DNA of 63,325 nucleotides from Thermodesulfovibrionales bacterium. Lineage in GTDB: Bacteria > Nitrospirota > Thermodesulfovibrionia > Thermodesulfovibrionales > SM23-35. The notes beneath the pieces are model-generated. The model ran no database searches. It was not told the origin of the DNA and saw only the letters and a list, made by a program, of their open reading frames with translations. The stretch covers positions 1 to 63,325 of the forward strand of contig CAVQRT010000035.1 in assembly GCA_963715195.1 (NCBI GenBank). The letters run 5' to 3'. The translations under genes and the position numbers were made by a program. Of this stretch, positions 24,435 to 48,276 are shown piece after piece; the stretch's first letter is position 1, and every line of letters starts with the position of its first letter.

Positions 24435-24616
24435 GTGAAACTCCCACGCGGCAAGCCGCGGGGCATCTAAGGCACAGCTTAAAGATGCTGTGCAGGCCAT
24501 GGGCATACCCAATGGCCTTTGAGGATAAGGGAGCCTTCGCGTCTCCCTTATAACCCTCTGCGAAAGGCATGCATTCATCCCCGTGTCAAGACACGGGGCA
24601 TTCTGCAAAGGCCTTC
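24435..24616 (-). mobile_element. Non-autonomous IS200/IS605-family element (PATE/MITE-like), 182 bp
   Basis: Subterminal hairpins at both ends, insertion 3' of TTAC, right end TCAC, no target duplication; its removal restores …GFVY|WLVIKGEERLR* of the globin gene. Confidence 0.85.
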
Positions 24617-25803: not shown

Positions 25804-26727
25804 CTACCCTATCTTATCAATAATAAAAGAGGCAATGAGAATGAGTGAAGAAAGCATCTGGAACTGAATGGTCCCTGCCTGTGCAGAAATTATCGCGACC
25901 GGATCAGCGTGAGTCTTCCACATGTGTACTGTTGTTTTGATTGCAACCGGCACGGTCAGGAGAATAAGGAGAGACCACCGCGGGTAGATATCGTAAATGA
26001 TGAGGAAAAGGGCAGAGAGATAAAAGAGTATCATCAGGATTGCATATCCGTACCTGGCAGCGCCTGTGCCGATTCTCACCACAAGGTTCCTTTTGCCGGC
26101 ATCCCTGTCCGCTTCGTAGTCCGGAAATTCATTGATCCACAGAATATTTGCGACTGCAAACCCGTTGGGGACCCCGAGGAGGAGGAACTCCGGACTGAAC
26201 ATGCCGAAATTCACATAGCCGATTCCAAGTGTAATGAGGGGTCCGAACGAGAAAAAGATAATCAGCTCACCAAGGCCTCTTGACTGAAAAGAAAACGGCT
26301 TCAGAGAGTAGATGATGCCGCAAAGCCCTCCGGCAGTCCCGATGAGCACTACATGGGGACGGTCTGCAAAAAACAGCACTGCACCTGCGGCAGCCGCCAT
26401 TATAAAAAACACTACCGACATATGCAAAAATGCCCGTCTCGACAATATATGCTCAAGCCGGCTTCTGCTTCCACCGCTGAAAGGAGTGGCGAACCTGTTA
26501 ATCCTGTCACTTTCCTCCCAGTCAAAATAGTCATTCAGGGTATTTGCCCCGAGGTGGAGAAAGAAAACCCCGAGCACTCCTAAGAAGACGTTCAGGAAAA
26601 TAAATTCTGTGCCGTAGACACCGCACCACACAGCAGCGAGCACCGCCGGGAGCACGGAGGCTGATACAAAAGGAAGCCTGGTGCCGGCTATATAGGATTT
26701 TTTCTTCGAAAGACCCTGTGATGTCAT
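25804..26727 (-). CDS. menA: 1,4-dihydroxy-2-naphthoate prenyltransferase (UbiA family)
   Basis: N..NDYFD, PFSGGS, GLGE, NEFPDYEAD…GKRNLVVR. Confidence 0.8.
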   Translation of the reverse strand: MTSQGLSKKKSYIAGTRLPFVSASVLPAVLAAVWCGVYGTEFIFLNVFLGVLGVFFLHLGANTLNDYFDWEESDRINRFATPFSGGSRSRLEHILSRRAFLHMSVVFFIMAAAAGAVLFFADRPHVVLIGTAGGLCGIIYSLKPFSFQSRGLGELIIFFSFGPLITLGIGYVNFGMFSPEFLLLGVPNGFAVANILWINEFPDYEADRDAGKRNLVVRIGTGAARYGYAILMILFYLSALFLIIYDIYPRWSLLILLTVPVAIKTTVHMWKTHADPVAIISAQAGTIQFQMLSSLILIASFIIDKIG

Positions 26728-28815: not shown

Positions 28816-31071
28816 TTATGTGGTAAGCGTACGATAGATCTCGGTAATCCTGTTCGGAAGCTTCCGTACATCGTCGAGAACAATATAACTTACTTCCCCG
28901 AACATATGCGGGAGGTATGACCGCGCCTCTTTATCAATGGTAATACAAAAAGGCTGAATCCTCTGCTCCTTGGCTTCGATAAGGGCCTTCCTTGTATCCT
29001 CGACCCCGTAGTCACCCCTGTAACTGTCGCGGTCCTCCGGATGACCATCACTCAGTGTCACAAGCAACTTTGTCTTCACATCAACTTTTTTAAGAATCTG
29101 TGTTGCATGCCGGATAGGAGGGCCCATGCGCGTATAGTCCTTCGGGACAATACCTGCAATTCGCCTCTTCACGGATATGTCGTATCCCTCATCAAATCCC
29201 TTCACCTTATAGAATTCGCACATGTTTCTTGTGACCCCGGAAAAACCGTAAATCGCATACCGGTCACCCAAAGCCTCGAGCGCCTCGCACATAAGTACGA
29301 GGGCCTCTTTCTCTGCCCTGTTCACCCACCCCTTGGTTGAACCACTCATGTCGAGGAGAAAAAGGGCACCGATACTCCTCTCCTGGCGGTCAAGTTTCGT
29401 AAAGAGGTTCTGGCTCGGGGAAAGTCCTGCCCTGGCGTCGGCAAAAGCCTCGACAATCGCATCGATATCTATATCGTCACCCTCTTTCTGACGCCTCATG
29501 ATGTTCAGCTCTTTCTTCAGGAGTTCGAACTTCCTCCTGAGTGTTGTGACGTACCCTCCATAGCGCTTCAGCGTCAGATCAACGAACGGCTCATCACCCG
29601 GATTTATTTCTTTCTCAAAAAGACTGCACCATCCCTTCTTGTAGTCATTTCTTCGGAAATCCCATTCATCATATCTTATGCCTCCCTCCTCACCTTCCTC
29701 TTCCTCTTCTTCAATGAGATCCTTCAATGAGAATATCACTTTCGAATCCAGTGAAGAACTCCCATCGAGAAGCATTCCGTCCGATACAATCCTGACTTCC
29801 TGAAGGATATCTTCTGTTTCCTGATCTACTTCGAAAAGCCTTCCTTTTACCAGAAGATACTTCGCGTCCTTTTTCGGCAATCTCTGTACCAGCGTTGATT
29901 TCCGGGATATCTTGTGCAGGAAAGGGTGCACTTCAGCATTTGGCATATTCACAAGTTTCGAGATAACGCTTTCAAGTCTCTTCTTCTTCTGTGCGGTCTT
30001 CTCTTTCAGGTGTGCGGACACTTTTTTCGGTTGTATCCTTCCCAGATATCCCATGTCCGTTCCGTGGTATTCACCTTTCAGCCCTTCTGCCAAGGAGTAA
30101 AGAGCACACAGGACATCCAGAATTTCCAATGTTTCCCCTGCCTTCCTTACCCTGTGAATCAAGGGAAGTGCTGCCTGAATAAACCTGGTATTCCCTCCCT
30201 TTGTACCACCGGTCAGAAATACCTGATAGAGGCCTTCAACTGCAGCTTGTTTTTCCGAAATTACGCAGAGCGAAGGCCTTTTCTCAAAGAAGCATTTTTT
30301 TATCACCTGTGCGTCTCTCATGAGACCCGACAGCTCCTGCTGAAGATGACGCTCCAGTCTGAATGCATCTATAACGGCGTAAAGATCTACCGCAAGGGCC
30401 TTATGCGCGAACGTGTGAAACAGGTCTGCGATATCAGGACGCGCCACGCGATCTTCTCCTATCACATTCCTCAGGTGCAAGGGATCAGGAGTGAGAGTTC
30501 CCCAGGCGATCCGGGCCCATTGGTAAACCGCCATTAACTTGTAAAGGACAAAATTATTATCCCGTTCCTTAAATTCATTCACATGGTGGGGCAAAAAAAT
30601 ACTCTCGGTATCGGTATAGGATTGATCATCAGGCACAATCCTCAGATGCATGCCTGAAATTCCACACAGGTAGGTTTCAAGAATCACGCTCACCGCCTGC
30701 AGAGAAAGGCCATCCTGTCTTTTGAACTTATTAAGCTCTTCCTCGTCAATCCTAGAAAGAAAACGGAAAAAGGCATCCATGCCCTGTGCTTCGAGAAGAT
30801 CAAAGGCATGGGTTATCCAGAGTTCCATCTCCTTGGGGGAGAGACTTTTTGATGCGGTATTGATCCTTCTGATAAGGTTAGGGACAAGGCCTGATGCTGA
30901 CTTTGAAAGCGAGGCACAAAGTGCGAGGGCCTTCAGACGGTAACGCTGGTCAAAAGCCCTGATGTCACGGGAGACCTTTTCCACCTCCTCGTCTTCGAAA
31001 AGGTCAAAGGTCAGGTTTTGAACAAGATCCTCCCATAGTTCTTCTTTTGCTCTTTTTGCTGCTGTCAGCAT
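28816..31071 (-). CDS. CbbO/NorD-family VWA-domain protein
   Basis: YDEWD, GD.ID.DA, MIDAS DMSGST, YTRMG..IRHA, LSDG.P.D, YG.EDTRKA. Confidence 0.9.
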   Translation of the reverse strand: MLTAAKRAKEELWEDLVQNLTFDLFEDEEVEKVSRDIRAFDQRYRLKALALCASLSKSASGLVPNLIRRINTASKSLSPKEMELWITHAFDLLEAQGMDAFFRFLSRIDEEELNKFKRQDGLSLQAVSVILETYLCGISGMHLRIVPDDQSYTDTESIFLPHHVNEFKERDNNFVLYKLMAVYQWARIAWGTLTPDPLHLRNVIGEDRVARPDIADLFHTFAHKALAVDLYAVIDAFRLERHLQQELSGLMRDAQVIKKCFFEKRPSLCVISEKQAAVEGLYQVFLTGGTKGGNTRFIQAALPLIHRVRKAGETLEILDVLCALYSLAEGLKGEYHGTDMGYLGRIQPKKVSAHLKEKTAQKKKRLESVISKLVNMPNAEVHPFLHKISRKSTLVQRLPKKDAKYLLVKGRLFEVDQETEDILQEVRIVSDGMLLDGSSSLDSKVIFSLKDLIEEEEEEGEEGGIRYDEWDFRRNDYKKGWCSLFEKEINPGDEPFVDLTLKRYGGYVTTLRRKFELLKKELNIMRRQKEGDDIDIDAIVEAFADARAGLSPSQNLFTKLDRQERSIGALFLLDMSGSTKGWVNRAEKEALVLMCEALEALGDRYAIYGFSGVTRNMCEFYKVKGFDEGYDISVKRRIAGIVPKDYTRMGPPIRHATQILKKVDVKTKLLVTLSDGHPEDRDSYRGDYGVEDTRKALIEAKEQRIQPFCITIDKEARSYLPHMFGEVSYIVLDDVRKLPNRITEIYRTLTT

Positions 31072-31092
31072 TGAGAATACCCGGCCTGGATC

Positions 31093-31905
31093 TCAGAAAA
31101 CGGAAACCACAATTTCAGAGAGTGCAACCAGCATTTCACGGTCATCGGTAAGGGGGGATGAAACAGCCACCTCGCAGGCTTTCTTCATATCAATCCCAGC
31201 ACTATTCATTTTTGCAGCGTGGATGAGCAGGCGAGTACTTGCCCCCTCTGTGAGACCCCTGTCCTTGAGGTTTCTCGTCTTCATTCCGAAATATACCAGT
31301 TTCTCTGCAAGATTCTCTTCGATTCCCGATTCATGGATGAGAATTTCTCTTTCAACCTCTTTTGAAGGATAGGAAAACTCTATTGCCATAAAACGCTGCC
31401 TTGTTGACTGCTTCAGATCCTTCAGTACGCTCTGGTATCCCGGGTTATATGATATTGCGAGCATAAACTCGGGGGCTGCCTTCAGTATCTGCCCCTTTTT
31501 CTCTATCGGGAGGATACGTCTGTCGTCTGCAAGTGGGTGAATTACAACGGTCGTATCCTTTCTCGCCTCGACAATTTCGTCAAGATAGCAGAATGCCCCT
31601 GCCTTCACAGCCTTTGTGAGTGGCCCGTCAACCCAGACCGTTTCCCCTCCCTTCACCAGATATCTTCCCACAAGGTCTGACGCGGTAAGGTCGTCATGAC
31701 AGGATACTGTGATCAGAGGCCGTTCCAGCTTCCATGCCATATATTGCATAAAACGTGTCTTCCCGCATCCGGTAGGCCCCTTCAGAAGAACAGGGATATG
31801 ATTTCTATAGGCAGATTCAAAAAGACTCACCTCATTTTCCACCTCACGGTAGTAAGGTTTCTCCGTAACGAGAAATTTTTCTGTTTTCTTGGCTTTTGTT
31901 TTCAT
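31093..31905 (-). CDS. CbbQ/NirQ/NorQ-family MoxR AAA+ ATPase
   Basis: [38 protein letters not shown]. Confidence 0.93.
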
Positions 31906-32902: not shown

Positions 32903-34330
32903 TCAGAAGCCTGCGACTGCTGCTTTCGCAAAACCGAGGAGATACGACGGAAAAATACCGATAAAAAGAACGGCGACAACCGCGATCCCGAGAGCGACGT
33001 TTGTCGATGCGGATGTGGTCAGCGTGACATCTCTCTTAGGATCCCTCATATACATATACATGACGATCCTGAGATAGAAGAATGCCGAGATTGCACTGAA
33101 AATTACTGCAATGACGACGAGCCACGTATAACCTGCGTTTATTGCGCCAAGGAAGAGATAGAGCTTACCGATAAAACCGGCCGTAGGAGGAATGCCTGTC
33201 AGGGAAAACATAAAAATCAGCATAAGCACCGCTGCGAGAGGATGCTGTTTCGAAAGACCCTGATAGTCATCGATATCCTCACCCCTGAATCCTTCACTCC
33301 GGAGCATGGTGATAACCCCGAAGGCACCTATGTTCATGAACGCGTAGATCATCATGTAGTTCATCATGCTTGCGATCCCGTCCTGATTTGCAACAATAAT
33401 CCCGAGAAGGGCATATCCTGCATGGGCAATCGAAGAGTATGCAAGCATCCTCTTGATGTTCGACTGTGAGAGTGCAACGATGTTCCCGACACCCATGGTG
33501 AGGATCGAAAGGACAATCAGAATAGTCTGCCAGTCAACCTTCACAGAAGCAAATGCAATGATGAAGACCCTGCCGAGGACCGCAAATCCGGCTGCCTTCG
33601 GACCGACTGACATGAACGCGGTGATTGAAGTAGGAGCGCCTTCATACACGTCAGGGGCCCACATATGGAATGGTACAAGTGCGATCTTGAACCCGAATGC
33701 CACAATGAGGAACATTGCCGAAAGGAGCAATGACGGATTACCTGCAAGACCGTTCTCCGCGATATAAGAAGCGATATGCTGAAGGTTTGTCGTCCCGGTA
33801 AGGCCGTAGACAATCGAAATGCCATAGAGCAGGAATCCAGAGGAAAATGCCCCGAGAAGGAAATATTTCAGTGCCGCTTCGCTGGACCTTCCGTCATGCC
33901 TGATAAACCCTGCAAGCACATAGGTGCTCAACGCCATGAGTTCAAGCCCCAGGTAGAGCACAATCAGGTCGCCGGCAGATGCCATGAGCATCATCCCTAT
34001 CGTCGAGAAGAGAATCAGGCTGTAATACTCACCGTAATTCACCTTTTCGACAATTATATACTTCATCGAGATGAGTACGGAGAGGACGACATTCACAAGA
34101 AAAATGATCTTGAAGAAAGTGCTGTACCCGTCAGCAATGAACATTCCCCCGAATGTCTCGCCGGACGAACCGATGAGCGAATATGCAACAACGCACACAG
34201 ATGCGATACTCATGAGCGCAACGATCTCTTTTCTCTTTATCAGCAGGTCTGCAAGTAATATGATGAGGGCGAGTCCCGTCAGGACAAGCTCAGGCATCAA
34301 GGGGCTGAGGTCGGGAAGCTGGAAGTTCAT
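32903..34330 (-). CDS. nuoN: NADH-quinone oxidoreductase subunit N
   Basis: EA.LKYF, FK…VPFH.WAPDVYEGAP, KRMLAYSSI.H. Confidence 0.95.
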   Translation of the reverse strand: MNFQLPDLSPLMPELVLTGLALIILLADLLIKRKEIVALMSIASVCVVAYSLIGSSGETFGGMFIADGYSTFFKIIFLVNVVLSVLISMKYIIVEKVNYGEYYSLILFSTIGMMLMASAGDLIVLYLGLELMALSTYVLAGFIRHDGRSSEAALKYFLLGAFSSGFLLYGISIVYGLTGTTNLQHIASYIAENGLAGNPSLLLSAMFLIVAFGFKIALVPFHMWAPDVYEGAPTSITAFMSVGPKAAGFAVLGRVFIIAFASVKVDWQTILIVLSILTMGVGNIVALSQSNIKRMLAYSSIAHAGYALLGIIVANQDGIASMMNYMMIYAFMNIGAFGVITMLRSEGFRGEDIDDYQGLSKQHPLAAVLMLIFMFSLTGIPPTAGFIGKLYLFLGAINAGYTWLVVIAVIFSAISAFFYLRIVMYMYMRDPKRDVTLTTSASTNVALGIAVVAVLFIGIFPSYLLGFAKAAVAGF

Positions 34331-35874
34331 TTCAACACTACCTCCATGATTGCTTTTGCGATATTCACTTCCTGCACACCGCTTCCTGTGGTCACCCTCT
34401 CAAGGAGATGCTCAACAGATACATGCATAAAGCTGAGGAGTGCATTCGGATACACGCCGATCCAGAAGACAAGAAAAAGCATAGGAAGAAGAGTGATCAT
34501 TTCCCTGATATCCATGTCAGGCAGGCCGATCACCTTCTTGTTTATCTCCGTGAAAAACACCCTCTGGTAGAGCAGGAGCATATAGGCCGCACCGATGATC
34601 ACACCGGTTGCCGCGAGTACCCCGACCAGCTTGTTCGCAGTGAATCCACCGAGCAGGATGAGAAACTCTCCGATAAAACCGTTTGTTGCGGGGAGACCGA
34701 TGGATGCCATGGTAAATACCATGAAGAACGCGGCATACATTGGCATCACGGTCGCTAGGCCTCCGTAATCTGCAATTTTCCTTGTATGCGTTCTCTCATA
34801 GACGATTCCTACCGAAAGGAAGAGAGCACCTGTCACCACCCCGTGGTTGATCATCTGGAGGATTCCTCCTTCCATACCCTGGCTGTTCAGTGCAAAAATA
34901 CCGAGTGTCACAAATCCCATGTGACTGACAGAACTGTATGCAATAAGTCTCTTAAGGTCTGTCTGGCCAAGGCATATGACCGCACCGTAGATGATCGCGA
35001 TAACTGACAGGGTAAGCATCACCGGTGTCATGGCGACTGAGGCTTCCGGGAAGAGCGGCAGAGAGAATCTCAGGAATCCGTATGCGCCCATCTTGATAAG
35101 TATGGCGGCAAGGATGACACTTCCTGCGGTTGGCGCTTCTGTGTGTGCATCGGGAAGCCATGTATGGACAGGCCACATCGGCACCTTCACCGCAAACGCA
35201 GCGAAGAATGCCCAGAATAACCACATCTGCATTGTGTAGGGATAAGATTTTGTCATAAGTTCAAGTATGCTAAACGTCTTTCCGGCATAAAGATAGAGCA
35301 TGATGATACCGATAAGCATCAGGAGACTCCCGACGAGAGTATACAGGAAGAATTTTATCGCGGCATACACCCTGTTGGGCCCTCCCCATACGCCGATGAT
35401 GAGGAACATGGGGATAAGCATTGCCTCCCAGAATATGTAGAACAGGAAAAAGTCGAGCGAACAGAAGACCCCGATCATCGCTGCGGTCGTGAGGAGTATG
35501 GATATATAGAATTCCTTTACTTTTGTCTTGATGGAGTTCCACGAAATAAGCACACAGAGGATCGCCGTAAGAGAGGAAAGGAGCACGAAGAGTACGCTGA
35601 TACCGTCGACCCCAAGGAAATAATTCACATTCCACTGCGATATCCACGGATGTTTCTCGACGAACTGCATTTTATGGGTGGTCTTGTCAAAATTGAGGAA
35701 AAGCGGCAATGCAAAGAGCAGCGTCGCTGAACTGGTAATCAGCGCAATCCATTTTGTAAGGAGTTCCCATCCTCTCCTGTTGATAAGAATCAGAAGGGCA
35801 CCGAGAACAGGCAGGAATATCAACGTCGAGAGTATCGGGTATCCAAGTTGATTCATTATGACCTGTTCTTCCAT
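34327..35874 (-). CDS. nuoM: NADH-quinone oxidoreductase subunit M
   Basis: FWEAMLIP, VKVP..P.HTWLPDAH.EAP, LIAYSSVSHMG. Confidence 0.95.
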   Translation of the reverse strand: MEEQVIMNQLGYPILSTLIFLPVLGALLILINRRGWELLTKWIALITSSATLLFALPLFLNFDKTTHKMQFVEKHPWISQWNVNYFLGVDGISVLFVLLSSLTAILCVLISWNSIKTKVKEFYISILLTTAAMIGVFCSLDFFLFYIFWEAMLIPMFLIIGVWGGPNRVYAAIKFFLYTLVGSLLMLIGIIMLYLYAGKTFSILELMTKSYPYTMQMWLFWAFFAAFAVKVPMWPVHTWLPDAHTEAPTAGSVILAAILIKMGAYGFLRFSLPLFPEASVAMTPVMLTLSVIAIIYGAVICLGQTDLKRLIAYSSVSHMGFVTLGIFALNSQGMEGGILQMINHGVVTGALFLSVGIVYERTHTRKIADYGGLATVMPMYAAFFMVFTMASIGLPATNGFIGEFLILLGGFTANKLVGVLAATGVIIGAAYMLLLYQRVFFTEINKKVIGLPDMDIREMITLLPMLFLVFWIGVYPNALLSFMHVSVEHLLERVTTGSGVQEVNIAKAIMEVVLK

Positions 35875-35894
35875 ATTTCTCCTCTAACTGTTTT

Positions 35895-37838
35895 TTACGA
35901 ACGCCACAAAAGGACATACAGGAGAATAAATACAGCCCCTGCAGCCATAAAAATGCCGTAGTGATGCGCAAGGCCGGTCTGAATCCTCCTCAGCTTTCCG
36001 CTGAAACTTCCGATCAGGCCAGGCACCCCGTTCACAACTCCTTCTATGATCTTTGCATCCGTGAATCCGACGAGAATCTTCCTCGCCACCCACATGGTAG
36101 GCTTCACGAGGATAATGTTGTACAGTTCGTCAACATAATATTTGTTATAAAGTATCAGATAAAAGAGATTGTAACTCTTTCCCATCCTGACGGGGATGTG
36201 TGTCTTTTTAAGATAGAATATAAAGGCGAGTATAAGACCAATAAATGCAATTGTGGTGGACAGGCTCATAATTCCGAGTTCCTGTGCATGAGTCCCGTGA
36301 AATTGAGGGTGTCCGACCACCGGCTCCAGGAAATGGGCGAAATGGGCACCCCCACCAAGTACCGGGGGAATACCGATCCAGCCGCATGCAACCGCACCAA
36401 TCGCAAGTATCATCAGGGGAATTGTCATCACCTTCGGCGATTCGTGGAGGTGATGTTCTTCATGGTGCGTACCCCTGAATTTACTGTGAAAGGTGAGGAA
36501 CATCAGCCTGAATGTATAGAACGGGGTAAAAAACGCGATACTGGTCATCAGCAGCCATACAAAAGTCCCGACCCCGCTGTGGGCGGCAAATGAAGACCAG
36601 ACAATCTCGTCCTTGCTGAAAAATCCGGCAAACCCCGGGATACCTCCCGCGCTGAGCGCTGCGAGCAGCATGGTAATGTATGTGACAGGCATATACTTCT
36701 TGAGCCCTCCCATCCTCTGCACGTCATTATGTCCGACCGCATGGATGACACTCCCCGCCCCGAGGAAGAGCAATGCCTTAAAGAACGCATGCGTATAAAG
36801 GTGGAACACTCCGGCTGCGAATGCCCCTACCCCGCACGCAACGAACATCATCCCGAGATGGCTAAGCGTCGAATACGCGATGATCCTCTTGATGTCATTC
36901 TGCACGCAGGCGATTGTTGCAGCAAATACCGACGTGACCGCTCCGACCACGGCCACCATGTTCATCGTAAACGGTGCAAGCACAAAAAGGGAATTGCAAC
37001 GCGCAACGAGGAATACACCGGCGGTTACCATGGTTGCCGCGTGTATGAGTGCACTGACCGGTGTCGGGCCTTCCATCGCATCAGGGAGCCACACATGCAA
37101 GGGTATCTGGGCTGATTTACCGACTGCGCCGCAGAAAAGAAGGACGGTAATCAGGGTAATCAAATCAACGTCATACCCCAGGAAATTAACTCTGTGCCCA
37201 ACAAAATCCTTGACGCCCTCAAAAACCGGCGCATAGTGTATCGTTCCGAAAGTGAGGAATATCATGAAAATCCCGAGTGCGAACCCGAAATCGCCGAACC
37301 TGTTCACGATGAATGCCTTTTTCCCTGCGTCGGCTGCTGACTTCTTCTCGTACCAGAAGCCGATGAGGAAATACGAGCAGACACCGACACCCTCCCAGCC
37401 GAAATAGAGCTGCAGGAAGTTGTTCGAAGTGACGAGCATCAGCATCGAAAACATAAACAGACTGAGATAGGCGAAAAACCGGTAGTATCCCTTGTCACCA
37501 TGCATGTAGCCTATCGAATAGATATGAATAAGCGTACTGATGGCTGTGACGACAATGAGCATGACCGCGGAGAGCTGGTCAATCAGAAAACCGACCGATA
37601 CATGAAAATTACCTGACACGATCCAGGTGTAGAGGTCTTCATTGATTATCATGCCCCCGAGCACATCAAAAAGGGCTATGACCGATACAATGAATGAACC
37701 GATAATCGCAAGGCATGAAGGCCAGTGGGCCTTCGTCCGCAAAATCTCCTTTCCAAGGAGGATGTTGATTATGAAGGCCGCAAGCGGCAAAAACGGTATC
37801 AATAAATATAATTTCATCAGTTCAGGCCCTGTGCCCAT
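35895..37838 (-). CDS. nuoL: NADH-quinone oxidoreductase subunit L
   Basis: GKSAQIPLHVWLPDAMEGPTPVSALIHAATMV, HAFFKALLF. Confidence 0.95.
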   Translation of the reverse strand: MGTGPELMKLYLLIPFLPLAAFIINILLGKEILRTKAHWPSCLAIIGSFIVSVIALFDVLGGMIINEDLYTWIVSGNFHVSVGFLIDQLSAVMLIVVTAISTLIHIYSIGYMHGDKGYYRFFAYLSLFMFSMLMLVTSNNFLQLYFGWEGVGVCSYFLIGFWYEKKSAADAGKKAFIVNRFGDFGFALGIFMIFLTFGTIHYAPVFEGVKDFVGHRVNFLGYDVDLITLITVLLFCGAVGKSAQIPLHVWLPDAMEGPTPVSALIHAATMVTAGVFLVARCNSLFVLAPFTMNMVAVVGAVTSVFAATIACVQNDIKRIIAYSTLSHLGMMFVACGVGAFAAGVFHLYTHAFFKALLFLGAGSVIHAVGHNDVQRMGGLKKYMPVTYITMLLAALSAGGIPGFAGFFSKDEIVWSSFAAHSGVGTFVWLLMTSIAFFTPFYTFRLMFLTFHSKFRGTHHEEHHLHESPKVMTIPLMILAIGAVACGWIGIPPVLGGGAHFAHFLEPVVGHPQFHGTHAQELGIMSLSTTIAFIGLILAFIFYLKKTHIPVRMGKSYNLFYLILYNKYYVDELYNIILVKPTMWVARKILVGFTDAKIIEGVVNGVPGLIGSFSGKLRRIQTGLAHHYGIFMAAGAVFILLYVLLWRS

Positions 37839-37857
37839 TCATAGAGTGTGTACAAAA

Positions 37858-38160
37858 TCATCCTTTTAGCCCTTTCGCCTCGTCCACATGTGCGGTTGCC
37901 CTGTTCCTGAAGAAGGCTATGACGATCGCCAATCCTATGGCTGCCTCGGCTGCTGCGACCGCGATCACAAAAAATGCGAGTATCTGCCCCCTCACGTCCT
38001 GCATGTAATGGCTCATTGCAATAAGATTGATGTTCACCGCATTCAGCATTAGCTCTATCGACATGAACATCAGAATGATATTCTTCCTTGTGAGAAAGCC
38101 GAACACCCCGATGGTAAATACCGCGAGACTGAGTACCATGTACCAGCTTAAAGGAACCAT
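37858..38160 (-). CDS. nuoK: NADH-quinone oxidoreductase subunit K
   Basis: SIELMLNAVN, AAAEAAIGLA. Confidence 0.95.
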   Translation of the reverse strand: MVPLSWYMVLSLAVFTIGVFGFLTRKNIILMFMSIELMLNAVNINLIAMSHYMQDVRGQILAFFVIAVAAAEAAIGLAIVIAFFRNRATAHVDEAKGLKG

Positions 38161-38163
38161 ATA

Positions 38164-38675
38164 TTAACTTTTCAGCCTCCTCTTCGCAAGGACTATTGCA
38201 CCGATAATCGCCACAAGGAGGACCAGCGATGCGATCTCAAACGGGAAAAGATATTCTGTATATAAAACCTTTCCAATCACTTTTGTATGGGTCTCCTGCT
38301 GAATGAGGTCGATCGAGTAGTTCCCTGCGGCGCGAGGATAAACGACCTCAGCGAGAGAATGACAAGCACGAAAAGAGCAACGGCAAACGTGAACCCGGCC
38401 GACCAGGCCCCGATGAACCGCCCGATAGTGAGTTCCTCTCTGAGGTTCATCAGGAGCACGACAAAGAGAAACAGCACGAGGATGCCTCCTGCGTAGACAA
38501 TCAGCTGTACCGCGGCCATGAACTCGGCATTCAGGAAGAGATAGAGGCTCGCGATATGGAAAAACAGGAGCAGCATCCAGAGCAGGCTGTGTACCGGATT
38601 CTTCCGGGTGACTACCACCAGCGAAAGAGCGACGATCGCAAAGGCGAAATACGCAAAAAAGAGTTCAGGAATCAT
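38164..38675 (-). CDS. nuoJ: NADH-quinone oxidoreductase subunit J (frameshift near 38320)
   Basis: NPVHS, AEF.AAVQ..VYAGG..VLFLFV; C-terminal FPFEIAS.VLLVA..GA. Confidence 0.93.
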
Positions 38676-39199
38676 GCGTCTTTCCCCCTCGGCTGATTTG
38701 CAGGTGTCTCAAAGTCCTCAGACATAGGCCTCCAGAACTTTTTGAAATAATACTCGCCCTTGTTCCCCGGCATGTACTTGTCCCAGTTTGCAAGCAGCTT
38801 TTCCTTATTCATAAGAAGCCGTTCCTTCGCGTATTCAGAATATTCATAGTTCTCTGTGAGGACAATCGCCCCGTACGGACATGCCTCCACGCAGAACCCG
38901 CAGTAGATGCATCTCAATACCTCAATCTCATATCCGGTCACCTGCCCCTTTGACCTTGTCACCTTGATGCACTGCGCCGGACAGATCGTTGCGCAGAGAC
39001 CGCACCCGACACACTTTGCTTGCCCGGTAGCCTGGTTCTTTGCGAGGGCATGCTGTCCCCTGAATCCTGCAGCGATCTTCCTTCTTTCCTTGGGGTACTG
39101 AATAGTGACAGGACGGGAAAACAGCCTGCTCAGGGTAAGGGCCATTCCCTGGAGAATCTCGATGAAAAAGACCTTTTTGACAAGTTGCCTGACAGTCAC
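38672..39199 (-). CDS. nuoI: NADH-quinone oxidoreductase subunit I
   Basis: T.QYP, FRG.H, CVGCGLCATICP and CIYCGFCVEACP. Confidence 0.95.
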   Translation of the reverse strand: MTVRQLVKKVFFIEILQGMALTLSRLFSRPVTIQYPKERRKIAAGFRGQHALAKNQATGQAKCVGCGLCATICPAQCIKVTRSKGQVTGYEIEVLRCIYCGFCVEACPYGAIVLTENYEYSEYAKERLLMNKEKLLANWDKYMPGNKGEYYFKKFWRPMSEDFETPANQPRGKDA

Positions 39200-39210
39200 C
39201 TATTTGCTCC

Positions 39211-40272
39211 TTACCATATGATTTTCACCAGTCCTGTGATAAGTATGTTCGCGAGTGCGACCGGAATGAGCACCTTCCACCCTATCGCCATCACCTGGTC
39301 ATACCTGTACCTCGGCAGCGTCGCGCGTATCCAGTAGTAGAAGAATATGAATGCATACACCTTCATGAGGAACCACACTATCCCAGGCACATGGGAAAGG
39401 AAGGGGAATACCTTGAGCACGTACCATGGCAGTGTCCAGCCACCGAGAAAACAGACTGCGGAAAGTGAGGCAATAATGAACATTGCAATATATTCGCCGA
39501 GGAAGAAGAGCGCGAACCTGAACCCGCTGTACTCAGTAAAGTATCCCGCAACGAGTTCGCTCTCTGCCTCCGGCATGTCGAACGGGGTTCTGTTCGTCTC
39601 CGCAACCGCAGAGATGGTAAAGACGACAAACGCAACGAACTGGGGTATGGCGTACACCCCGAAGACAGACTGTTCCTGCATCCTGACGATCTCTCCAAGA
39701 TTCAGCGACCCCGCCATGATCATCACCCCGACTAGACTCAGTCCCATCGCAATCTCATAACTGATGACCTGCGCAGAGGACCTGAGTCCGCCGAGGAAGG
39801 CGTACTTGGAGTTCGATGCCCAGCCTGCAATAAACACCCCGTAGACACCGATACCGGCAATGGCAAAGAGAAATAAAAGACCGATATTAAGGTCGGCAAT
39901 CACAAAATTCTCTGCAAACGGGATCACGGAAAGATTGACCATTGCCGATGCCATGAAAATGACCGGCGCAAGATAAAAGACTGCCTTATCCGCCTGTGCC
40001 GGGATGATATCTTCCTTGAAAAAGAGCTTGAGCCCGTCAGCAAAAGGCTGCAGGAGCCCGTGCGGGCCGACCCTCATAGGGCCCATCCTTACCTGCATAT
40101 GACCGATTACCTTGCGCTCGAAATATGTTGCATATGCAACGTGCAGCAACCCCACTGCGAGGACAACCGCAATCTTCACTATAATAATGATGACGTCGAT
40201 GCTGAACTGAATCACTGCACCCAGGGCTGCAGGCGGCATGAGGTTATTTAATATGCCGTTCAATGTATCCAT
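39211..40272 (-). CDS. nuoH: NADH-quinone oxidoreductase subunit H
   Basis: ERK…MQ.R.GP, LLQP.ADGLKL..KE, ETNRTPFD.PEAESEL..G. Confidence 0.96.
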   Translation of the reverse strand: MDTLNGILNNLMPPAALGAVIQFSIDVIIIIVKIAVVLAVGLLHVAYATYFERKVIGHMQVRMGPMRVGPHGLLQPFADGLKLFFKEDIIPAQADKAVFYLAPVIFMASAMVNLSVIPFAENFVIADLNIGLLFLFAIAGIGVYGVFIAGWASNSKYAFLGGLRSSAQVISYEIAMGLSLVGVMIMAGSLNLGEIVRMQEQSVFGVYAIPQFVAFVVFTISAVAETNRTPFDMPEAESELVAGYFTEYSGFRFALFFLGEYIAMFIIASLSAVCFLGGWTLPWYVLKVFPFLSHVPGIVWFLMKVYAFIFFYYWIRATLPRYRYDQVMAIGWKVLIPVALANILITGLVKIIW

Positions 40273-40275
40273 TGG

Positions 40276-41740
40276 CTATCTATCGCACTCTCCAAGCACA
40301 ATATCGATTGTACCGATGTTCGCAATGACGTCGGCAACCAGATGTCCCTTGCAGAGCCGGGGCAATACGCCTGCGTGGATAAAAGACGGCGCTCTCACCC
40401 TCATTCTGTAAGGCTTTCCTGTTCCGTCGCTCACGAAATAGAATCCGAGTTCCCCTTTCGGGACTTCGGTTGCAACATAGACGTCCCCTGCCGGCGCCTT
40501 CGGACCTTTCTTTATAAACGTAAAGTGTTCGACAAGGTGCTGCTGGGCCGTCTTCATCTCCTCCGAAAGCTCGGCTTTGGACATTTCGACCAGCTTGTCC
40601 TCGGGCTGTCCTTTTCCGCCCGGCACTATTTTCATTGCCTTGAACTTGCATGTGACAAAGCAGGTTGCACAGTTCAGGCAGAGGCTTTGATCGATCTTGT
40701 GCGGCTTTTTCTTCTCCCCAGTGATTGCCTTTGCAGGGCATGCCCTGAGACACATGCCGCATCCCTTGCACGCTTTCTCATCCACAAGGTACGCCACGTC
40801 CTTCATCGGATGTGTAATCGCCATCATCTTGTCTTTCGGCTGGAGTACGAATTTGGGTGCATCGGCCATTATCGGTCCGGGAGGCAGCTTGTCAATGACA
40901 CTGCCTTATGATGCTGTTTGACTCTCTCATCTCGAGCATTCTGCAGCGGTAACGGTCATACGTATCTCCCTTGGTGCCGATCGGAACACTGAACTCGACC
41001 TGGTCGTACGCGTCATATGGCATGTGTTTCCTTATATCATATGAGACTCCCGACCCCCTCAACGTGGGCCCGGTCATTCCCCAGCTCACCGCTTCTTCAG
41101 CCGAGATCACCCCGATATCAACCGTCCTCTTCAGCCAGATCCTGTTCTGGTCGATCAGGGTTTCATATTCAAGTATCCTTGAAGGGAACTCATCGGTAAA
41201 CTTCCAGACACTATCGATGAATTCCTGCGAGATATCGTTCCTCACCCCGCCTATCCTCGGGTAGGTGACGGTGAGCCGCGCTCCGCAGATATTCTCATAC
41301 AAGTCGAGAATCCATTCCCTCTCTCTGAAACAATAAAGGAAATACCGTCATCGCCCCTATGTCGAGCGCATGGGTTGCGAGCCAGAGAAGGTGGTTTGCA
41401 ATCCTTGACAGTTCACCGAGGATCGTCCGTATGAACTTAGCCCTCTCGGGGGCCTCTATCCCGTAAAGTTTTTCGACCGCAAGGACATACCCGATATTGT
41501 TTGACATCGCTGACACATAATCCATCCTGTCAGTAAGAGGAAGGGCCTGGAAGTAACTGAGGCTCTCCCCTGAGCTTCTCAATCCCCCTGTGGAGATATC
41601 CGACGTAGGGGGTCACATTCACGATCACTTCTCCATCAAGGTCGAGCACAAGGCGCAAAACACCGTGTGTAGCCGGATGCTGCGGCCCCATGTTTACATT
41701 CAGCTCTCTCTGTTTCGAATATCTTCTCTAACTGCTCCAT
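40276..41740 (-). CDS. nuoD: NADH-quinone oxidoreductase subunit D with an inserted 2x[4Fe-4S] ferredoxin domain (frameshifts in the 5' part)
   Basis: [37 protein letters not shown]-terminal DIVLGECDR; insert [12 protein letters not shown]…[12 protein letters not shown]. Confidence 0.92.
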
Positions 41741-41741
41741 A

Positions 41742-42330
41742 TTATCCTTCCCACTCGAACTCTTTCAGTTCCTCAGACCTCTTGAGCGTGTCGGTAAATC
41801 CTGGCCAGTCCTGCTCCAACGGAGGACCTGCGAGGGGGTAGTCTTTTCTCAGGGGATGCCCTTCCCAATCCTCCGGCATAAGGATTCTCCTGAGATCAGG
41901 ATGGCCGGTGAATTGAATGCCAAACATATCGAAACACTCACGCTCATGCCAGTTGGCACCCGCCCAGAGGGGGACGACCGACCTGATGGCCGGGTCTCTC
42001 TGGCACCTGTGCCTTCAGGCGCAGACTGTGGCGATAGCGTATGGAATAAATATTATAGACGACTTCAAACCGCGGTTCCTTTTTTCCGCGCCAGTCGACC
42101 GCGGTGAGATCCTGGAGATGGTCAAACAGCAGATGGGGATCGTCATGAAGAAATCTGCAGATATCGAGGATTCTCCCGCGCTTCAGGATCACCGAGACCT
42201 GGCCCATCGTCTCTGTGACTTCGACCACTTCTTCAGGGAAATTCTCCTTGATCTTTTCCGCAATTTCGTTCGGATCAATGCTTGCCGGGGGAAGCGAGAG
42301 TCTTAATGACGTTACCGCCATGGGCTCCAC
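41742..42330 (-). CDS. nuoC: NADH-quinone oxidoreductase subunit C (frameshifted)
   Basis: [44 protein letters not shown]. Confidence 0.92.
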
Positions 42331-42830
42331 CTCGCTTTTTCGTTTCTGATTTTCTCCTGAAGCATCATCATACCCTCCAAGAGTGTTTCAGGCCTGGGCG
42401 GGCAGCCCGGGACGTATACATCTACAGGGAGGAATGTATCGCATCCCTGAACCGTGCTGTATGTCCTGAATACCCCGCCGGTACACGCACAGCTTCCCAT
42501 CGCGACTACATACCTCGGCTCGGGAATCTGGTCATATACCCGTCTTACCACAGGGGCCATCTTTTTTGTCACCGTACCGGCGACAATCACACAGTCCGCC
42601 TGCCTGGGGGACCCCCTGAATATTATCCCGAACCGGTCAAAATCGTAGTGAGCCGCACCTACCGCCATCATTTCGATCGCGCAGCAGGCAAGCCCGAATG
42701 TGGTTGGCCATATCGAAGACAGTCTTCCCCAGTTGATGACCTTGTCGAATGTCGTGATGATTACGTTCGGAGGCAATATCCTGGTGTCTTCTTCTACCTG
42801 TATAAGTCCGACTGTCGATGTGTCAAGCAC
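42312..42830 (-). CDS. nuoB: NADH-quinone oxidoreductase subunit B
   Basis: [32 protein letters not shown]. Confidence 0.96.
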
Positions 42831-42859
42831 CTTCTTCTACCCTCCGTTTTCCATGAAGG

Positions 42860-43231
42860 TTAATCCCATTGAAACGCCTCTTTTTTCCATGCATAGAGGT
42901 AGCCGATCAAAAGGATCACTATAAAGATAACCATTTCTATAAAGGCATAAATGCCGATCTTGTCGAAAACTATAGCCCAGGGATAAAGGAATATTGCTTC
43001 CACGTCGAAGACGACGAAGAGCATGGCAATGATATAGAACCTTATCGAGAATCTGTAGCGTGGTTCTCCTGTCGGGGTAATGCCTGATTCGTATGGCATG
43101 AGCTTTTCAAAATAGGGTTTTTTCAGTCTGAAGATCATGCCGATAAGTAGTGCACCGAGACCGAATGCCGATGCAATCAAAATGAAGATAAGAACCGGTA
43201 AATATTCTGATGGCAAATATGTTCCAGGCAT
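42860..43231 (-). CDS. nuoA: NADH-quinone oxidoreductase subunit A
   Basis: K..PYESG, FY..AMLF..FDVE..FLYPWA. Confidence 0.96.
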   Translation of the reverse strand: MPGTYLPSEYLPVLIFILIASAFGLGALLIGMIFRLKKPYFEKLMPYESGITPTGEPRYRFSIRFYIIAMLFVVFDVEAIFLYPWAIVFDKIGIYAFIEMVIFIVILLIGYLYAWKKEAFQWD

Positions 43232-43241
43232 AAGCGCTTAT

Positions 43242-43271
43242 GTTATACTGAATAGCGCCACCTCTTGTCAA
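43242..43271 (-). promoter_or_regulatory. Sigma70-type promoter of the nuo operon
   Basis: TTGACA-18nt-TATAAC ending 10 nt before the nuoA ATG. Confidence 0.6.
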
Positions 43272-43337
43272 GTAAAAATTTTTCGGATATTCGCGAAAGG
43301 CTGAAAATGGACAGGGGTATCTTAAAAAGGGGGTTTT

Positions 43338-44174
43338 ATGTTTAAAATTCTCAAAAAAGAGACTCTCTCAGATGCCGTCACACTCTTTGATATTGAAGCG
43401 CCTGACATTGCCCGGAAAGCAAAGGCCGGAAATTTTTTCATACTCAAAATCGATGAGCGTGGCGAGAGAATCCCGCTCACCATTGCTGACTTTGACAGCG
43501 GGAGAGGCACTATCACGACCGTTTTCCAGAAAATCGGGAAGACAACCTTTCAGCTTGATGAACTCGGGGAAGGGGATATCCTCTCCGACGTCACCGGACC
43601 CCTCGGCATGCACAGCCATATAGACAGGTTTGGCAAGGTTATCTGTGTTGGAGGCGGGGTCGGGATCGCGCCGGTGTATCCTATCGCGAGGGAACTGAAA
43701 GAAGCGGGGAACCAGGTCATTTCGATCATCGGGGCCCGCACAAAAGACCTCCTCTTCTGGGAAGAAAAGATGCGGGAGGTCTCTGATGAACTCATCGTCA
43801 CGACCGACGACGGCTCATACGGCAGAAAATGTGTCGTGACGGTCCCGCTGGAAGAAATACTCCGTGAAAAGCAAGAGGTGGCACAGGTAACCGCTATCGG
43901 CCCTGCCATCATGATGAAATTCGTCTGTATCACCACTGAAAAATATAATGTAAAAACAATCGTGAGCCTCAATTCCATTATGGTCGACGGCACAGGAATG
44001 TGCGGCGCATGCAGGATCGAAGTCGGGGGGGAAACCAGGTTTGCCTGTGTGGACGGCCCCGAGTTTGACGGGCATAAGGTGGACTTTGACCTGCTTATGT
44101 CGCGGCAGAGAATGTATCTGGACGAGGAAAAATCTGCGCTTGCACAATACAGGGCATCTACCGTAGGGGAGTAA
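43338..44174 (+). CDS. nfnA: NfnA/SudB-type small subunit (FAD, [2Fe-2S]) of electron-bifurcating transhydrogenase
   Basis: GERIPLTIAD, GGGVG.AP, TDDGSYG, MVDGTGMCGACR, CVDGPEFD. Confidence 0.85.
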   Translation: MFKILKKETLSDAVTLFDIEAPDIARKAKAGNFFILKIDERGERIPLTIADFDSGRGTITTVFQKIGKTTFQLDELGEGDILSDVTGPLGMHSHIDRFGKVICVGGGVGIAPVYPIARELKEAGNQVISIIGARTKDLLFWEEKMREVSDELIVTTDDGSYGRKCVVTVPLEEILREKQEVAQVTAIGPAIMMKFVCITTEKYNVKTIVSLNSIMVDGTGMCGACRIEVGGETRFACVDGPEFDGHKVDFDLLMSRQRMYLDEEKSALAQYRASTVGE

Positions 44175-44176
44175 TT

Positions 44177-45598
44177 ATGGATGAGAAGAAAAAGAAACCC
44201 AGAGTAGCGATGCGTGAGCAGGATCCGCGGGAACGGGCGAAAAATTTCATGGAAGTCCCCCACGGCTATTCACCCGAGGAAGCGGTCGATGAGGCTTCGC
44301 GATGCCTGGGGTGCACAAGGCCCGCATGCAGGAACGGCTGCCCCGTACGGGTTGATATTCCCTCCTTTATTAAACTGATCAAGGAAGGCAGGTTTATCGA
44401 GGCGGCATGGAGCGTGAAAGAGCAAAACGCGCTGCCTGCTGTATGCGGCAGGGTATGTCCCCAGGAAATACAGTGTGAATCAATGTGTATCCTTGGGAAA
44501 AAGGGAGAACCTGTCGCCATAGGGAATCTCGAACGGTTTGTTTCTGATTATGAAGCAGCGGCGGGAGAGATTCAGGTGCCCAAGATACCAAGGAAGACCG
44601 GCAGGAAGATCGCAATCATCGGCTCTGGTCCGGGAGGGTTAACGTGTGCTGCCGAACTGATCAGGTCAGGTCATGAGGTAACCCTGTTCGAGGCCCTGCA
44701 TAAACCGGGGGGCGTGCTCGTCTACGGCATCCCCGAATTCCGGCTTCCGAAAGCGATCGTTGAAAGGGAAGTTGCCTATATACAACAACTTGGGGTCAAA
44801 GTTGTCGTGAATGCGGTCATTGGAAATCTCCATACGATTGATGAATTGCTGGACGTTCAGGGATACGATGCATGCTTCGTCGCGACAGGAGCAGGCCTGC
44901 CCGTATTCATGGGCATCCCCGGGGAAAACCTGAACGGCATCTATTCGGCGAATGAGTTTCTCACACGGGCCAATCTTATGAAGGCATACCTCTTCCCGGA
45001 ATATGACACCCCTATCAGGAGGGGAAAGCATGTGGCGGTCATCGGCGGCGGGAACGTCGCTATGGACTCTGCAAGGGTGGCATTGCGCCTCGGCGCAGAG
45101 AAGGTATCTCTCATTTACAGGCGGTCCGAAGCCGAGATGCCAGCCCGGAAGGCAGAGGTACACCACGCCCACGAAGAGGGCATAGATTTTCAGTTTCTGA
45201 CCAATCCCCTGCGTTACATAGACGACGGCAGCGGAAATGTCTGTGCAGTGGAATGCATCCGCATGGAACTGGGCGAAGCCGATGACTCGGGGAGAAGGAG
45301 ACCCGTCCCCGTTCAGGGGAGCGAATTCCAGATCGAGATAGATGTAGGTATCCCTGCAATCGGCACAAGATCAAACCCCCTGCTTCTGAACAGCACGGAA
45401 GGCCTCCGGACAAACAGAAGAGGCTATATCATCGCAAATGAAGAAACGGGGATGACCTCACGCAAGGGCGTATTTGCCGGCGGGGACATCGTTACCGGTT
45501 CCGCGACCGTAATCCTCGCGATGGGCGCAGGGAGGAAGGCAGCATCCGCAATCAAAGAATACCTGAAGTGGAAGTACTGGGACTTCGGGGAAGAGTGA
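44177..45598 (+). CDS. nfnB: NfnB/SudA (GltD-like) large subunit
   Basis: RCL.C…C..GCP, CGRVCPQE.QCE, GSGPGG, YGIPEFRLP, GGGNVAMD, YRR, AGGDIVTG; follows nfnA with no gltB nearby. Confidence 0.85.
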   Translation: MDEKKKKPRVAMREQDPRERAKNFMEVPHGYSPEEAVDEASRCLGCTRPACRNGCPVRVDIPSFIKLIKEGRFIEAAWSVKEQNALPAVCGRVCPQEIQCESMCILGKKGEPVAIGNLERFVSDYEAAAGEIQVPKIPRKTGRKIAIIGSGPGGLTCAAELIRSGHEVTLFEALHKPGGVLVYGIPEFRLPKAIVEREVAYIQQLGVKVVVNAVIGNLHTIDELLDVQGYDACFVATGAGLPVFMGIPGENLNGIYSANEFLTRANLMKAYLFPEYDTPIRRGKHVAVIGGGNVAMDSARVALRLGAEKVSLIYRRSEAEMPARKAEVHHAHEEGIDFQFLTNPLRYIDDGSGNVCAVECIRMELGEADDSGRRRPVPVQGSEFQIEIDVGIPAIGTRSNPLLLNSTEGLRTNRRGYIIANEETGMTSRKGVFAGGDIVTGSATVILAMGAGRKAASAIKEYLKWKYWDFGEE

Positions 45599-46257: not shown

Positions 46258-46347
46258 GGAGGGGTGCCAGAGCGGTTGAATGGGACGGTCTCGAAAATCG
46301 TTGTGGGGGCAACCCCACCGAGGGTTCGAATCCCTCCCCCTCCGCCA
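46258..46347 (+). tRNA. tRNA-Ser(CGA)
   Basis: GGAGGGG acceptor stem, anticodon loop CTCGAAA, long variable arm, GGTTCGAATCC, CCA end. Confidence 0.95.
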
Positions 46348-48201: not shown

Positions 48202-48276
48202 GGGCGATTAGCTCAGCGGGAGAGCGCTTCCTTCACACGGAAGAGGCCACTGGTTCGAAACCAGTATCGCCCACCA
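48202..48276 (+). tRNA. tRNA-Val(CAC)
   Basis: GGGCGAT acceptor stem, CTTCC-TTCACAC-GGAAG anticodon arm, GGTTCGAAACC, CCA end. Confidence 0.95.

Follow-up and report, generated by a model that had tools for sequence, protein, structure and literature searches.

A ferredoxin-type domain inside NuoD of an eleven-subunit complex I encoded head to head with nfnSL in a Thermodesulfovibrionales bacterium

Gene content of the locus

The window analysed here is a 63,325-nucleotide stretch (contig CAVQRT010000035.1) from the genome bin of a Thermodesulfovibrionales bacterium. On its minus strand, running from 43231 to 32903, lie eleven genes of respiratory complex I in the order nuoA, B, C, D, H, I, J, K, L, M and N, all of which match NCBIfam Nuo models (Table 1). 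No E, F or G gene lies between nuoD and nuoH in this operon, and NuoD contains an inserted domain with eight cysteines of the 2[4Fe-4S] type. The nuoA start codon at 43231 is separated by only 106 bp from that of the divergent nfnS at 43338, which is followed by nfnL. An earlier note made from the letters of the sequence had described an operon without nuoE, F and G, the short gap to a divergent nfnAB pair and a ferredoxin domain fused into NuoD, and all three descriptions proved accurate.

The intact NuoD homologue P0001 (486 aa) is 96% identical to the window protein over a 197-residue C-terminal piece. It keeps the quinone-site residues H21, H25, Y74 and D126, and its CxxC motifs are found only inside the insert. 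The N- and C-terminal CxxC ligands of a group 4 membrane NiFe hydrogenase are missing; this assignment was therefore rejected, as the earlier note had argued.

Six small indels interrupt the window copy (one in nuoC, four in nuoD and one in nuoJ), so that the gene set is that of an eleven-subunit complex I-like enzyme in which C, D and J are broken here and intact in relatives. In contigs of the public run X3 the frame is open at three of the six sites; nothing is listed for the other three, the stretch being covered patchily. Contig C33 of the same bin (G000) carries a second whole block, 72% identical, with C, D and J intact but with breaks elsewhere, and intact fused NuoD proteins of 469–505 aa are abundant, 69 of them with the full cysteine motif. 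In view of the open frames, the intact homologues and the different breaks in the C33 copy, the six indels are most likely assembly errors. A pseudogene or decaying operon was rejected, since the indels differ between the two bin copies and are absent from the public contigs at half of the sites. No other genome with two fused copies was seen among 56 genomes of the family. Considering this, the 72% identity of the copies and the 6.57% contamination of the source bin, one of the contigs C33 and C35 probably comes from a relative.

The second block comprises isochorismatase, nuo, nfn and tadA genes (G000:C33:35411-48105) and is likely that of a co-binned relative; aprA was matched on three contigs too.

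Table 1. Coordinates of the features of the nuo–nfn locus in the window
Feature	Position	Strand	Remarks
nuoA	42860..43231	-	PF00507 and NCBIfam subunit A models; ATG at 43231
nuoB, with tandem Cys-Cys of cluster N2	42312..42830	-	TIGR01957 above cut-off; Cys-Cys present in the window copy
nuoC	41742..42321	-	NCBIfam match; 2-base loss near 41997 (likely assembly error)
nuoD with inserted ferredoxin domain	40276..41740	-	four 1-base gains near 41710, 41571, 41338 and 40897 (likely assembly errors)
NuoD insert, ~90 residues; eight-Cys 2[4Fe-4S] domain of BfuB/HydB C-terminal type plus short helix	40546..40812	-	
nuoH	39211..40272	-	NCBIfam Nuo model
nuoI, inter-cluster hairpin short and basic	38672..39199	-	both cluster motifs intact
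nuoJ	38164..38675	-	1-base loss near 38328 (frame open in public contig)
nuoK	37858..38160	-	NCBIfam Nuo model
nuoL	35895..37838	-	NCBIfam Nuo model
nuoM	34327..35874	-	NCBIfam Nuo model
nuoN	32903..34330	-	NCBIfam Nuo model
Promoter-like TTGACA-18 nt-TATAAC, conserved	43242..43271	-	ends 10 nt before nuoA ATG; by eye in upstream sequences of relatives
nfnS (nfnA), FAD/[2Fe-2S] small subunit of electron-bifurcating transhydrogenase, 278 aa	43338..44174	+	NF004862 above cut-off
nfnL (nfnB), FAD/2[4Fe-4S] large subunit, 473 aa	44177..45598	+	4ylf_B, E 6.7e-186

The NuoD insert and the NuoI hairpin

The insert of about 90 residues lies between positions that match residues 362 and 369 of the mouse 49-kDa subunit. 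Its full eight-cysteine motif is present in 69/69 fused homologues, and the mean identity among inserts is 79%. This conservation argues against the view of the insert as a passenger, tolerated or structural, which covers the exposed NuoI cluster while ferredoxin docks on NuoI directly as in plain eleven-subunit enzymes, or as part of a decaying operon. Such a view could draw on six loci within the family whose EFG-less operons are plain (without insert) and on the indels of the window copy, the latter discounted above, and we regard it as very improbable.

Among single-domain matches in the Protein Data Bank (PDB), the insert scores best with RnfB and HydB/BfuB, in both cases with the C-terminal domain (9eri_B, 9bov_B, 7p5h_B, 9n5u_B). 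An AlphaFold model of NuoD shows the insert as a ferredoxin-type domain plus helices, at a per-residue confidence (pLDDT) of 69–85. A Foldseek search with this model found 49-kDa subunits only among the 50 matches listed and did not place the insert. The prediction of a complex between NuoI (residues 28–145) and the insert (residues 309–390) scored 0.00 in two runs, with controls not folded, and was not used either way. The insert is predicted to bind two [4Fe-4S] clusters and would lie above cluster N6a of NuoI.

In cyanobacterial NDH-1 the ferredoxin pocket is described as consisting of NdhH Lys315/Lys321 and the NdhI hairpin, 9.6 Å from N6a (PMC7021789, PMC6992706). When plain NuoD is placed on the NdhH profile the offset is −2, so that the insertion point falls about 10–17 residues before these lysines. 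The net charge is +5 to +8 over 43 inserts and −6 for the small ferredoxin of the bin. Both the mapping and the charge are compatible with a ferredoxin donor at the NuoD/NuoI apex. Along with the BfuB type of the insert, they support the earlier suggestion of a ferredoxin-type donor for this complex, which is a prediction from sequence.

A second change was found in NuoI. Its hairpin between the two cluster motifs has 18 residues and is basic in 33/33 fused operons (one frameshifted operon was dropped), as compared with 22–24 residues, neutral to acidic, in 45/45 plain operons, the fused form being 4–6 residues shorter. NuoI of the fused operons formed one clade (0.95; this tree and those of operons, core genes and domains were made with FastTree). 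The short hairpin and the insert are likely a single co-adaptation.

Distribution of the fused NuoD and loss of nuoEFG

Among 201 genomes of the class Thermodesulfovibrionia, fused NuoD was found in 14/15 relatives of the same family and in 1/185 others; on the operon tree this sole outside case (G140) falls within the family. Of the family's 57 genomes, 43 were fused, 10 plain and 4 without match. A pattern scan of 185,579 genomes retained 78 loci, namely 16 fused NuoD, 61 BfuB C-termini and 1 other, and a search of 1.84 billion cluster representatives gave one match to the whole insert region.

In all 44 fused operons whose sequence reaches nuoH, or almost reaches it, no NuoE, F or G gene follows nuoD. 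The 44 outgroup loci comprise 29 with NuoF between D and H, three with E or F after D but cut, ten EFG-less ones with plain NuoD, one with a bfu cluster at this place and one that is cut. The eleven-subunit state is therefore read as a secondary loss. Core-gene trees put a few plain operons among the fused ones. An in-operon NuoF orthologue (67–68% identity) occurs only in G240 and G241 (partially in G239), which are 14-subunit members of the family; none was found in G000 (best 47–48%) nor in the 43 fused genomes (best 50%). This speaks against completion of the complex by nuoEFG from elsewhere, an outcome that the earlier note had named as refuting its reading. A few relatives have a second, NuoCD-type operon.

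G000 encodes four NuoF-like (Bfu/NuoF) paralogues in other gene contexts, plus Rnf. A NuoEFG-like, Bfu-type module from elsewhere might dock in trans, with the insert acting as its missing B3/B4 domain, to form a Nuo-Bfu enzyme. In line with this, one of the four paralogues, on contig C31 (548 aa), ends before the C-terminal ferredoxin domain, G187 and G205 encode a BfuB core–GltD-like fusion without this domain divergently from nuoA, and in G090 a bfu cluster lies between nuoD and nuoH, as in the Nuo-Bfu enzyme predicted in PMC9304861. However, each paralogue has its own context (CO dehydrogenase/acetyl-CoA synthase (CODH/ACS), formate pathway, pyruvate oxidoreductase or glutamate synthase), most fused genomes show no link to nuo, and the insert would likely occupy the docking face of NuoG. 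Docking in trans is accordingly regarded as rather improbable.

Some of these loci merit description in their own right. The fusions in G187 (L117:2356-5544) and G205 (L085:6570-9755), both fused-NuoD genomes, have 1061–1062 aa and join the BfuB core to a GltD-like domain, which in the Nfn-Bfu enzymes described in PMC9304861 belongs to the A subunit. In G090:C4 (L051/L163), genes for a sensor kinase, regulators, a response regulator (RR)–BfuC fusion, BfuB, BfuA, a kinase and PHP proteins stand between nuoD and nuoH in a Nuo-Bfu-like operon. Three outgroup loci (L041:9213-9692, L049:9142-9684 and L042:9184-9639) encode a small protein directly after nuoD which by eye resembles a cyclic-nucleotide-binding domain, and in L077, from the outgroup genome G018, an EFG-less nuo operon starts 94 bp after pyruvate:ferredoxin oxidoreductase-like genes on the same strand.

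Origin of the insert

The sequences nearest to the insert are the C-termini of BfuB from the divergent cluster that neighbours nuoA (61–65% mean identity), with some other BfuB paralogues reaching 61–62%. A hidden Markov model (HMM) of the inserts scored nine neighbour-cluster BfuB ends at 103–110 bits and 26 other BfuB ends at ≤91; an ungapped tail-similarity score gave no separation of the BfuB groups. An orthologue of the neighbour-cluster BfuB is present in 8/10 plain and 0/43 fused family genomes, as expected if the end of BfuB had moved into NuoD and the gene had then been lost. In NfnABC, ferredoxin has been located 12.8 Å from the B3/B4 clusters of BfuB (PMC12018979).

A possible history starts from a class ancestor that would have had nuoA–N plus a divergent cluster of a sensor kinase, regulators, sometimes nfnSL, and bfuC-bfuB-bfuA. 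The family would then have lost nuoEFG and taken the C-terminal domain of BfuB into NuoD, and the loss of regulators and bfu genes would have left nfnSL head to head with nuoA. Complex I would thus have been rebuilt as a self-contained ferredoxin:menaquinone pump, the B3/B4 docking domain of the neighbouring bifurcating BfuB having moved into NuoD atop N6a and the NuoI hairpin having been trimmed to match. We give this account slightly less than an even chance. If true, it would represent a hard-wired electron port for a complex I lacking the N-module and a living step between NADH-, Bfu- and ferredoxin-driven pumps.

Identity of nfnSL and its link to the nuo operon

The best solved match of nfnS is 5jca_S (E 3.9e-104), while nfnL matches 4ylf_B far better (Table 1) than the best glutamate-synthase small chain (E 2.9e-87). 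The FNR-type small subunit NfnS has an Asp/Cys3 [2Fe-2S] motif and the GltD-like NfnL two [4Fe-4S] motifs plus the flavin arginine, as predicted for an NfnSL pair; we take the Asp/Cys3 and Glu ligand pattern to be that of the Nfn clusters. The arginine, Arg189, aligns with Arg187 of Thermotoga maritima NfnB, which contacts the flavin (PMC6405883). NfnL also passes the ‘gltA’ model TIGR01316 (574.6, cut-off 471.75). We assume that this model covers Nfn large subunits as well. Identification as the GltD of a glutamate synthase was rejected, for the GltB pieces lie on C31, in a cluster with its own GltD-like fusion; the assignment as NfnAB in the earlier note is thus upheld.

The promoter-like element before nuoA is, by eye, kept in relatives whichever gene sits upstream. 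The lack of a Shine-Dalgarno sequence and a similar promoter spacing across much of the class suggest that the nuo mRNA would be nearly leaderless. A consensus promoter scanner made no call in the nuoA–nfnS gap, no Rex-like palindrome was seen there by eye, and inspection of the nfn side revealed no conserved motif shared among relatives. RNA run X22 covers parts of nuo and nfn, as short contigs only.

The synteny of 42 fused relatives was compared, three of which have no upstream sequence. Among the other 39, nfnS is head to head with nuoA in 29; three have a nuoE-F-G-like module upstream and then, more distant, nfnS with nfnL; and seven have no nfn. At six of these seven loci pntA1-pntA2-pntB occupies the slot, 98–120 bp from nuoA (PntA scores above its NCBIfam cut-off, PntB matches at E 5.5e-116 but under its cut-off). 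The adjacency that had been noted is thus common but not fixed, and since the genomes are kin, these counts stand for few events. Genome-wide, NfnS was found in 33/43 fused genomes, and eight of the ten without it have PntB; several NfnS-negative bins are incomplete, though not G219 (99%), G169 (96%) and G214 (96%). The reaction of PntAB is a hydride transfer between NADH and NADP, by which complex I cannot be fed. Because the slot exchanges with such an enzyme, the function kept opposite nuoA is most likely NADPH supply. RnfC was detected in 33/42 NfnS-positive and 0/11 PntB genomes, hence Nfn tracks Rnf.

Two genomes that retain nuoEFG (G189 and G240) and the plain G159 have nfnSL some 3 kb upstream, on the far side of a sensor kinase gene and regulators, and in 9/62 BfuB loci it immediately precedes bfuC. 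Its place before bfuC and upstream of the 14-subunit operons of G189 and G240 indicates that nfnSL travelled with the bfu cluster. Outside the family, nfnS was found within about 6 kb upstream in 0/10 EFG-less operons, seven of these ten genomes having it elsewhere. The 106-bp gap most plausibly results from deletion of the regulators.

These data bear on the proposal in the earlier note that NfnB (NfnL) docks directly on the NuoD insert, making NfnSL a dedicated, swapped-in input module that carries electrons from NADPH through complex I to menaquinone. The frequent head-to-head arrangement, seen in both bin copies, is in its favour, as is the ferredoxin-like nature of the insert, given that the predicted ferredoxin site of NfnL is close to its distal cluster. 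Yet pntAB can take the slot, NfnS is unmatched in 10/43 fused genomes, nfnSL also accompanies 14-subunit operons and bfuC, the insert is basic and soluble ferredoxin acidic, and by eye the nfn side of the gap shows no conserved motif in common. We did not retain this proposal and think that there is little chance of its being correct. NfnSL is likely a neighbouring NADPH-supplying transhydrogenase, judging from its exchange for pntAB in relatives, and not a bound input module; an indirect link with nuo through soluble ferredoxin, in either direction, is possible.

Other features of the window

The earlier note had also pointed to a nearby menA. A UbiA-family gene does exist (25804-26727), but 6.2 kb past nuoN and five genes off, and it scores under the cut-off of every MenA model (TIGR00751: 78.1 versus 102.15), so that menA was rejected as functional evidence.

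In nuoB, an in-frame TGA replaces the first cysteine codon of the N2 Cys-Cys pair in 20/95 loci scored, including the C33 copy (G000:C33:44860-45375; further examples are L023, L028, L032 and L034). It is a candidate selenocysteine codon; the window nuoB reads Cys-Cys instead. Downstream of nuoN and a nitroreductase gene, a NorQ/CbbQ-type AAA ATPase and a 751-aa VWA protein are encoded (28816-31905, minus strand), which were not seen in the fetched loci of relatives. The minus strand further encodes a homologue of pentameric ligand-gated ion channels (19693-20832; PF02931/PF02932), a protoglobin domain joined to a PsiE membrane domain (24575-25477) and two P-type cation ATPase copies (4404-7068 and 16649-19306), the first of them split over two frames, with close copies on C7 and C30. 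Genes for tRNA-Ser(CGA) (46258-46347) and tRNA-Val(CAC) (48202-48276) lie downstream of tadA.

Discussion

We favour an eleven-subunit complex I in which the NuoD insert serves as a built-in ferredoxin port, soluble reduced ferredoxin delivering electrons to menaquinone with proton pumping, while nfnSL is a neighbouring NADPH supplier and not a bound module. This we hold to be probable by a modest degree. Ferredoxin would be reduced by pyruvate:ferredoxin oxidoreductase, CODH/ACS or Bfu-type enzymes, genes for which are in the bin. Electrons would then pass from soluble ferredoxin to the insert and on through N6a, N6b and N2 to menaquinone, the intact L/M/N/H arm pumping protons, and menaquinol would feed sulfate reduction. 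A sink for it is encoded by dsrA, aprA, DsrM-like and Mqn genes, and futalosine-pathway genes (PF02621) are present in the genome. NfnSL would draw on the same ferredoxin pool to make NADPH, which is how Nfn is described to run in vivo, with a need for reduced ferredoxin (PMC6405883).

Reported potentials are at or below −500 mV for ferredoxin, −74 mV for menaquinone and −280 mV for NADH (PMC6405883, PMC9304861). From these, two electrons passing from ferredoxin to menaquinone would yield about 0.8 eV, enough for four protons, and about half of this when coming from NADH. Transfer from NADH to menaquinone may indeed fall short of the cost of four protons (PMC9304861). Ferredoxin would cover it, which would account for the swap in sulfate reducers limited by energy.

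The same architecture could also work in reverse, with proton-motive force being spent to drive electrons from menaquinol to ferredoxin, whereupon NfnSL with NADH would make NADPH. Each electron would have to be lifted by about 0.35–0.43 V, just about the most that four protons can drive at a proton-motive force of about 180 mV, the value used in this estimate. Rnf, whose distribution Nfn follows as described above, would be a cheaper source of ferredoxin, and the fused complex is kept where Nfn is absent. In support of the reversal, RnfC is unmatched in 9/42 NfnS-positive family genomes, the in vivo direction of Nfn demands reduced ferredoxin, the B3/B4 clusters of BfuB pass electrons to ferredoxin (PMC12018979) and the class includes sulfur disproportionators (PMC10203281). 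We consider the reverse direction unlikely, albeit the most plausible of the alternatives.

Several points weigh against the forward-running ferredoxin port. Rnf, already a ferredoxin oxidiser, is present in 26/40 good-quality family genomes, and 16 EFG-less operons in the class lack any insert. Forward operation is our reading, direction not being legible from sequence. The NuoD model, of the subunit alone, is modest (mean pLDDT 63), and the proximity of the insertion to the ferredoxin segment of NdhH is deduced from the profile offset, not from superposition. The coincidence of insert and short hairpin counts as one event, because both probably arose once. As the bin is mixed, partner genes may come from a relative. 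With regard to the donor, a FastTree tree of 75 columns did not join the inserts with the neighbour BfuB but grouped them with other BfuB paralogues (0.94), with a poorly supported root; the donor paralogue is therefore favoured by identity and distribution only, and the BfuB set was collected partly with the candidate donor as query.

If the ferredoxin port exists as we envisage it, it would address a gap in what has been reported on electron entry into eleven-subunit enzymes, for which the text of PMC3144371 gives no designated partner and for which ferredoxin as donor outside cyanobacteria is, in the account of PMC11238625, a proposal. A candidate port within the NuoD polypeptide lends itself to testing, by means of a domain of 90 residues and a handful of cysteine mutants. 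The locus also cautions against inferring function from a tight divergent pair, since close relatives have NfnSL, PntAB or a module of Bfu type in the slot.

Comparison with known systems

Cyanobacterial NDH-1 likewise has 11 core subunits without NuoEFG, and its ferredoxin site is formed by the two elements that are changed in the present complex, the C-terminal segment of NdhH and the NdhI hairpin (PMC7021789, PMC6992706). According to the same papers it binds a [2Fe-2S] ferredoxin directly, with the aid of NdhO, S and V, and contains three clusters. In contrast, the complex described here has two extra predicted clusters in NuoD, its quinone would be menaquinone and its operon derives from a 14-subunit one. 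NdhL–O, S and V are not encoded in the window operon, no genome-wide search having been made. The complex was not filed as NDH-1, the TIGR01962 score of NuoD being higher than its score with the NdhH model.

Nuo-Bfu, a predicted complex I with a BfuABC input module, shares the joining of a BfuB-type B3/B4 domain to complex I of Nitrospirota and has menaquinone as predicted acceptor (PMC9304861). Here the B3/B4-type domain alone is kept, within NuoD. The bfuA, B and C genes present inside the nuo operon of G090 are absent from this and all fused operons. As the operon thus encodes no flavin or NADH site and no BfuA/C, confurcation would not take place in the complex.

The eleven-subunit enzymes of PMC3144371 and of Desulfitobacterium hafniense (PMC11238625) have the same nuoABCDHIJKLMN set, a proposed transfer of ferredoxin-borne cytoplasmic electrons to menaquinone and no dedicated partner, so far as these papers describe them. 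Their available text mentions no Fe-S insert in NuoD; at the present locus, moreover, the eleven-subunit state is a secondary loss. NfnSL resembles the NfnSL/NfnAB enzymes of T. maritima and Pyrococcus furiosus (4YLF, 5JCA), its best PDB matches, in the two-gene pair, the cluster ligands and the flavin arginine, and differs in its position opposite nuoA and its replacement by PntAB in relatives.

Searches of open-licence papers brought up no account of a ferredoxin domain within NuoD. The eleven-subunit enzyme and NfnSL are of known kinds, and the ferredoxin domain inside NuoD is a real new variant. The present analysis further contributes the test of the nfn link by pntAB exchange and Rnf tracking, the complementary distribution of the presumed donor and the change in the NuoI hairpin.

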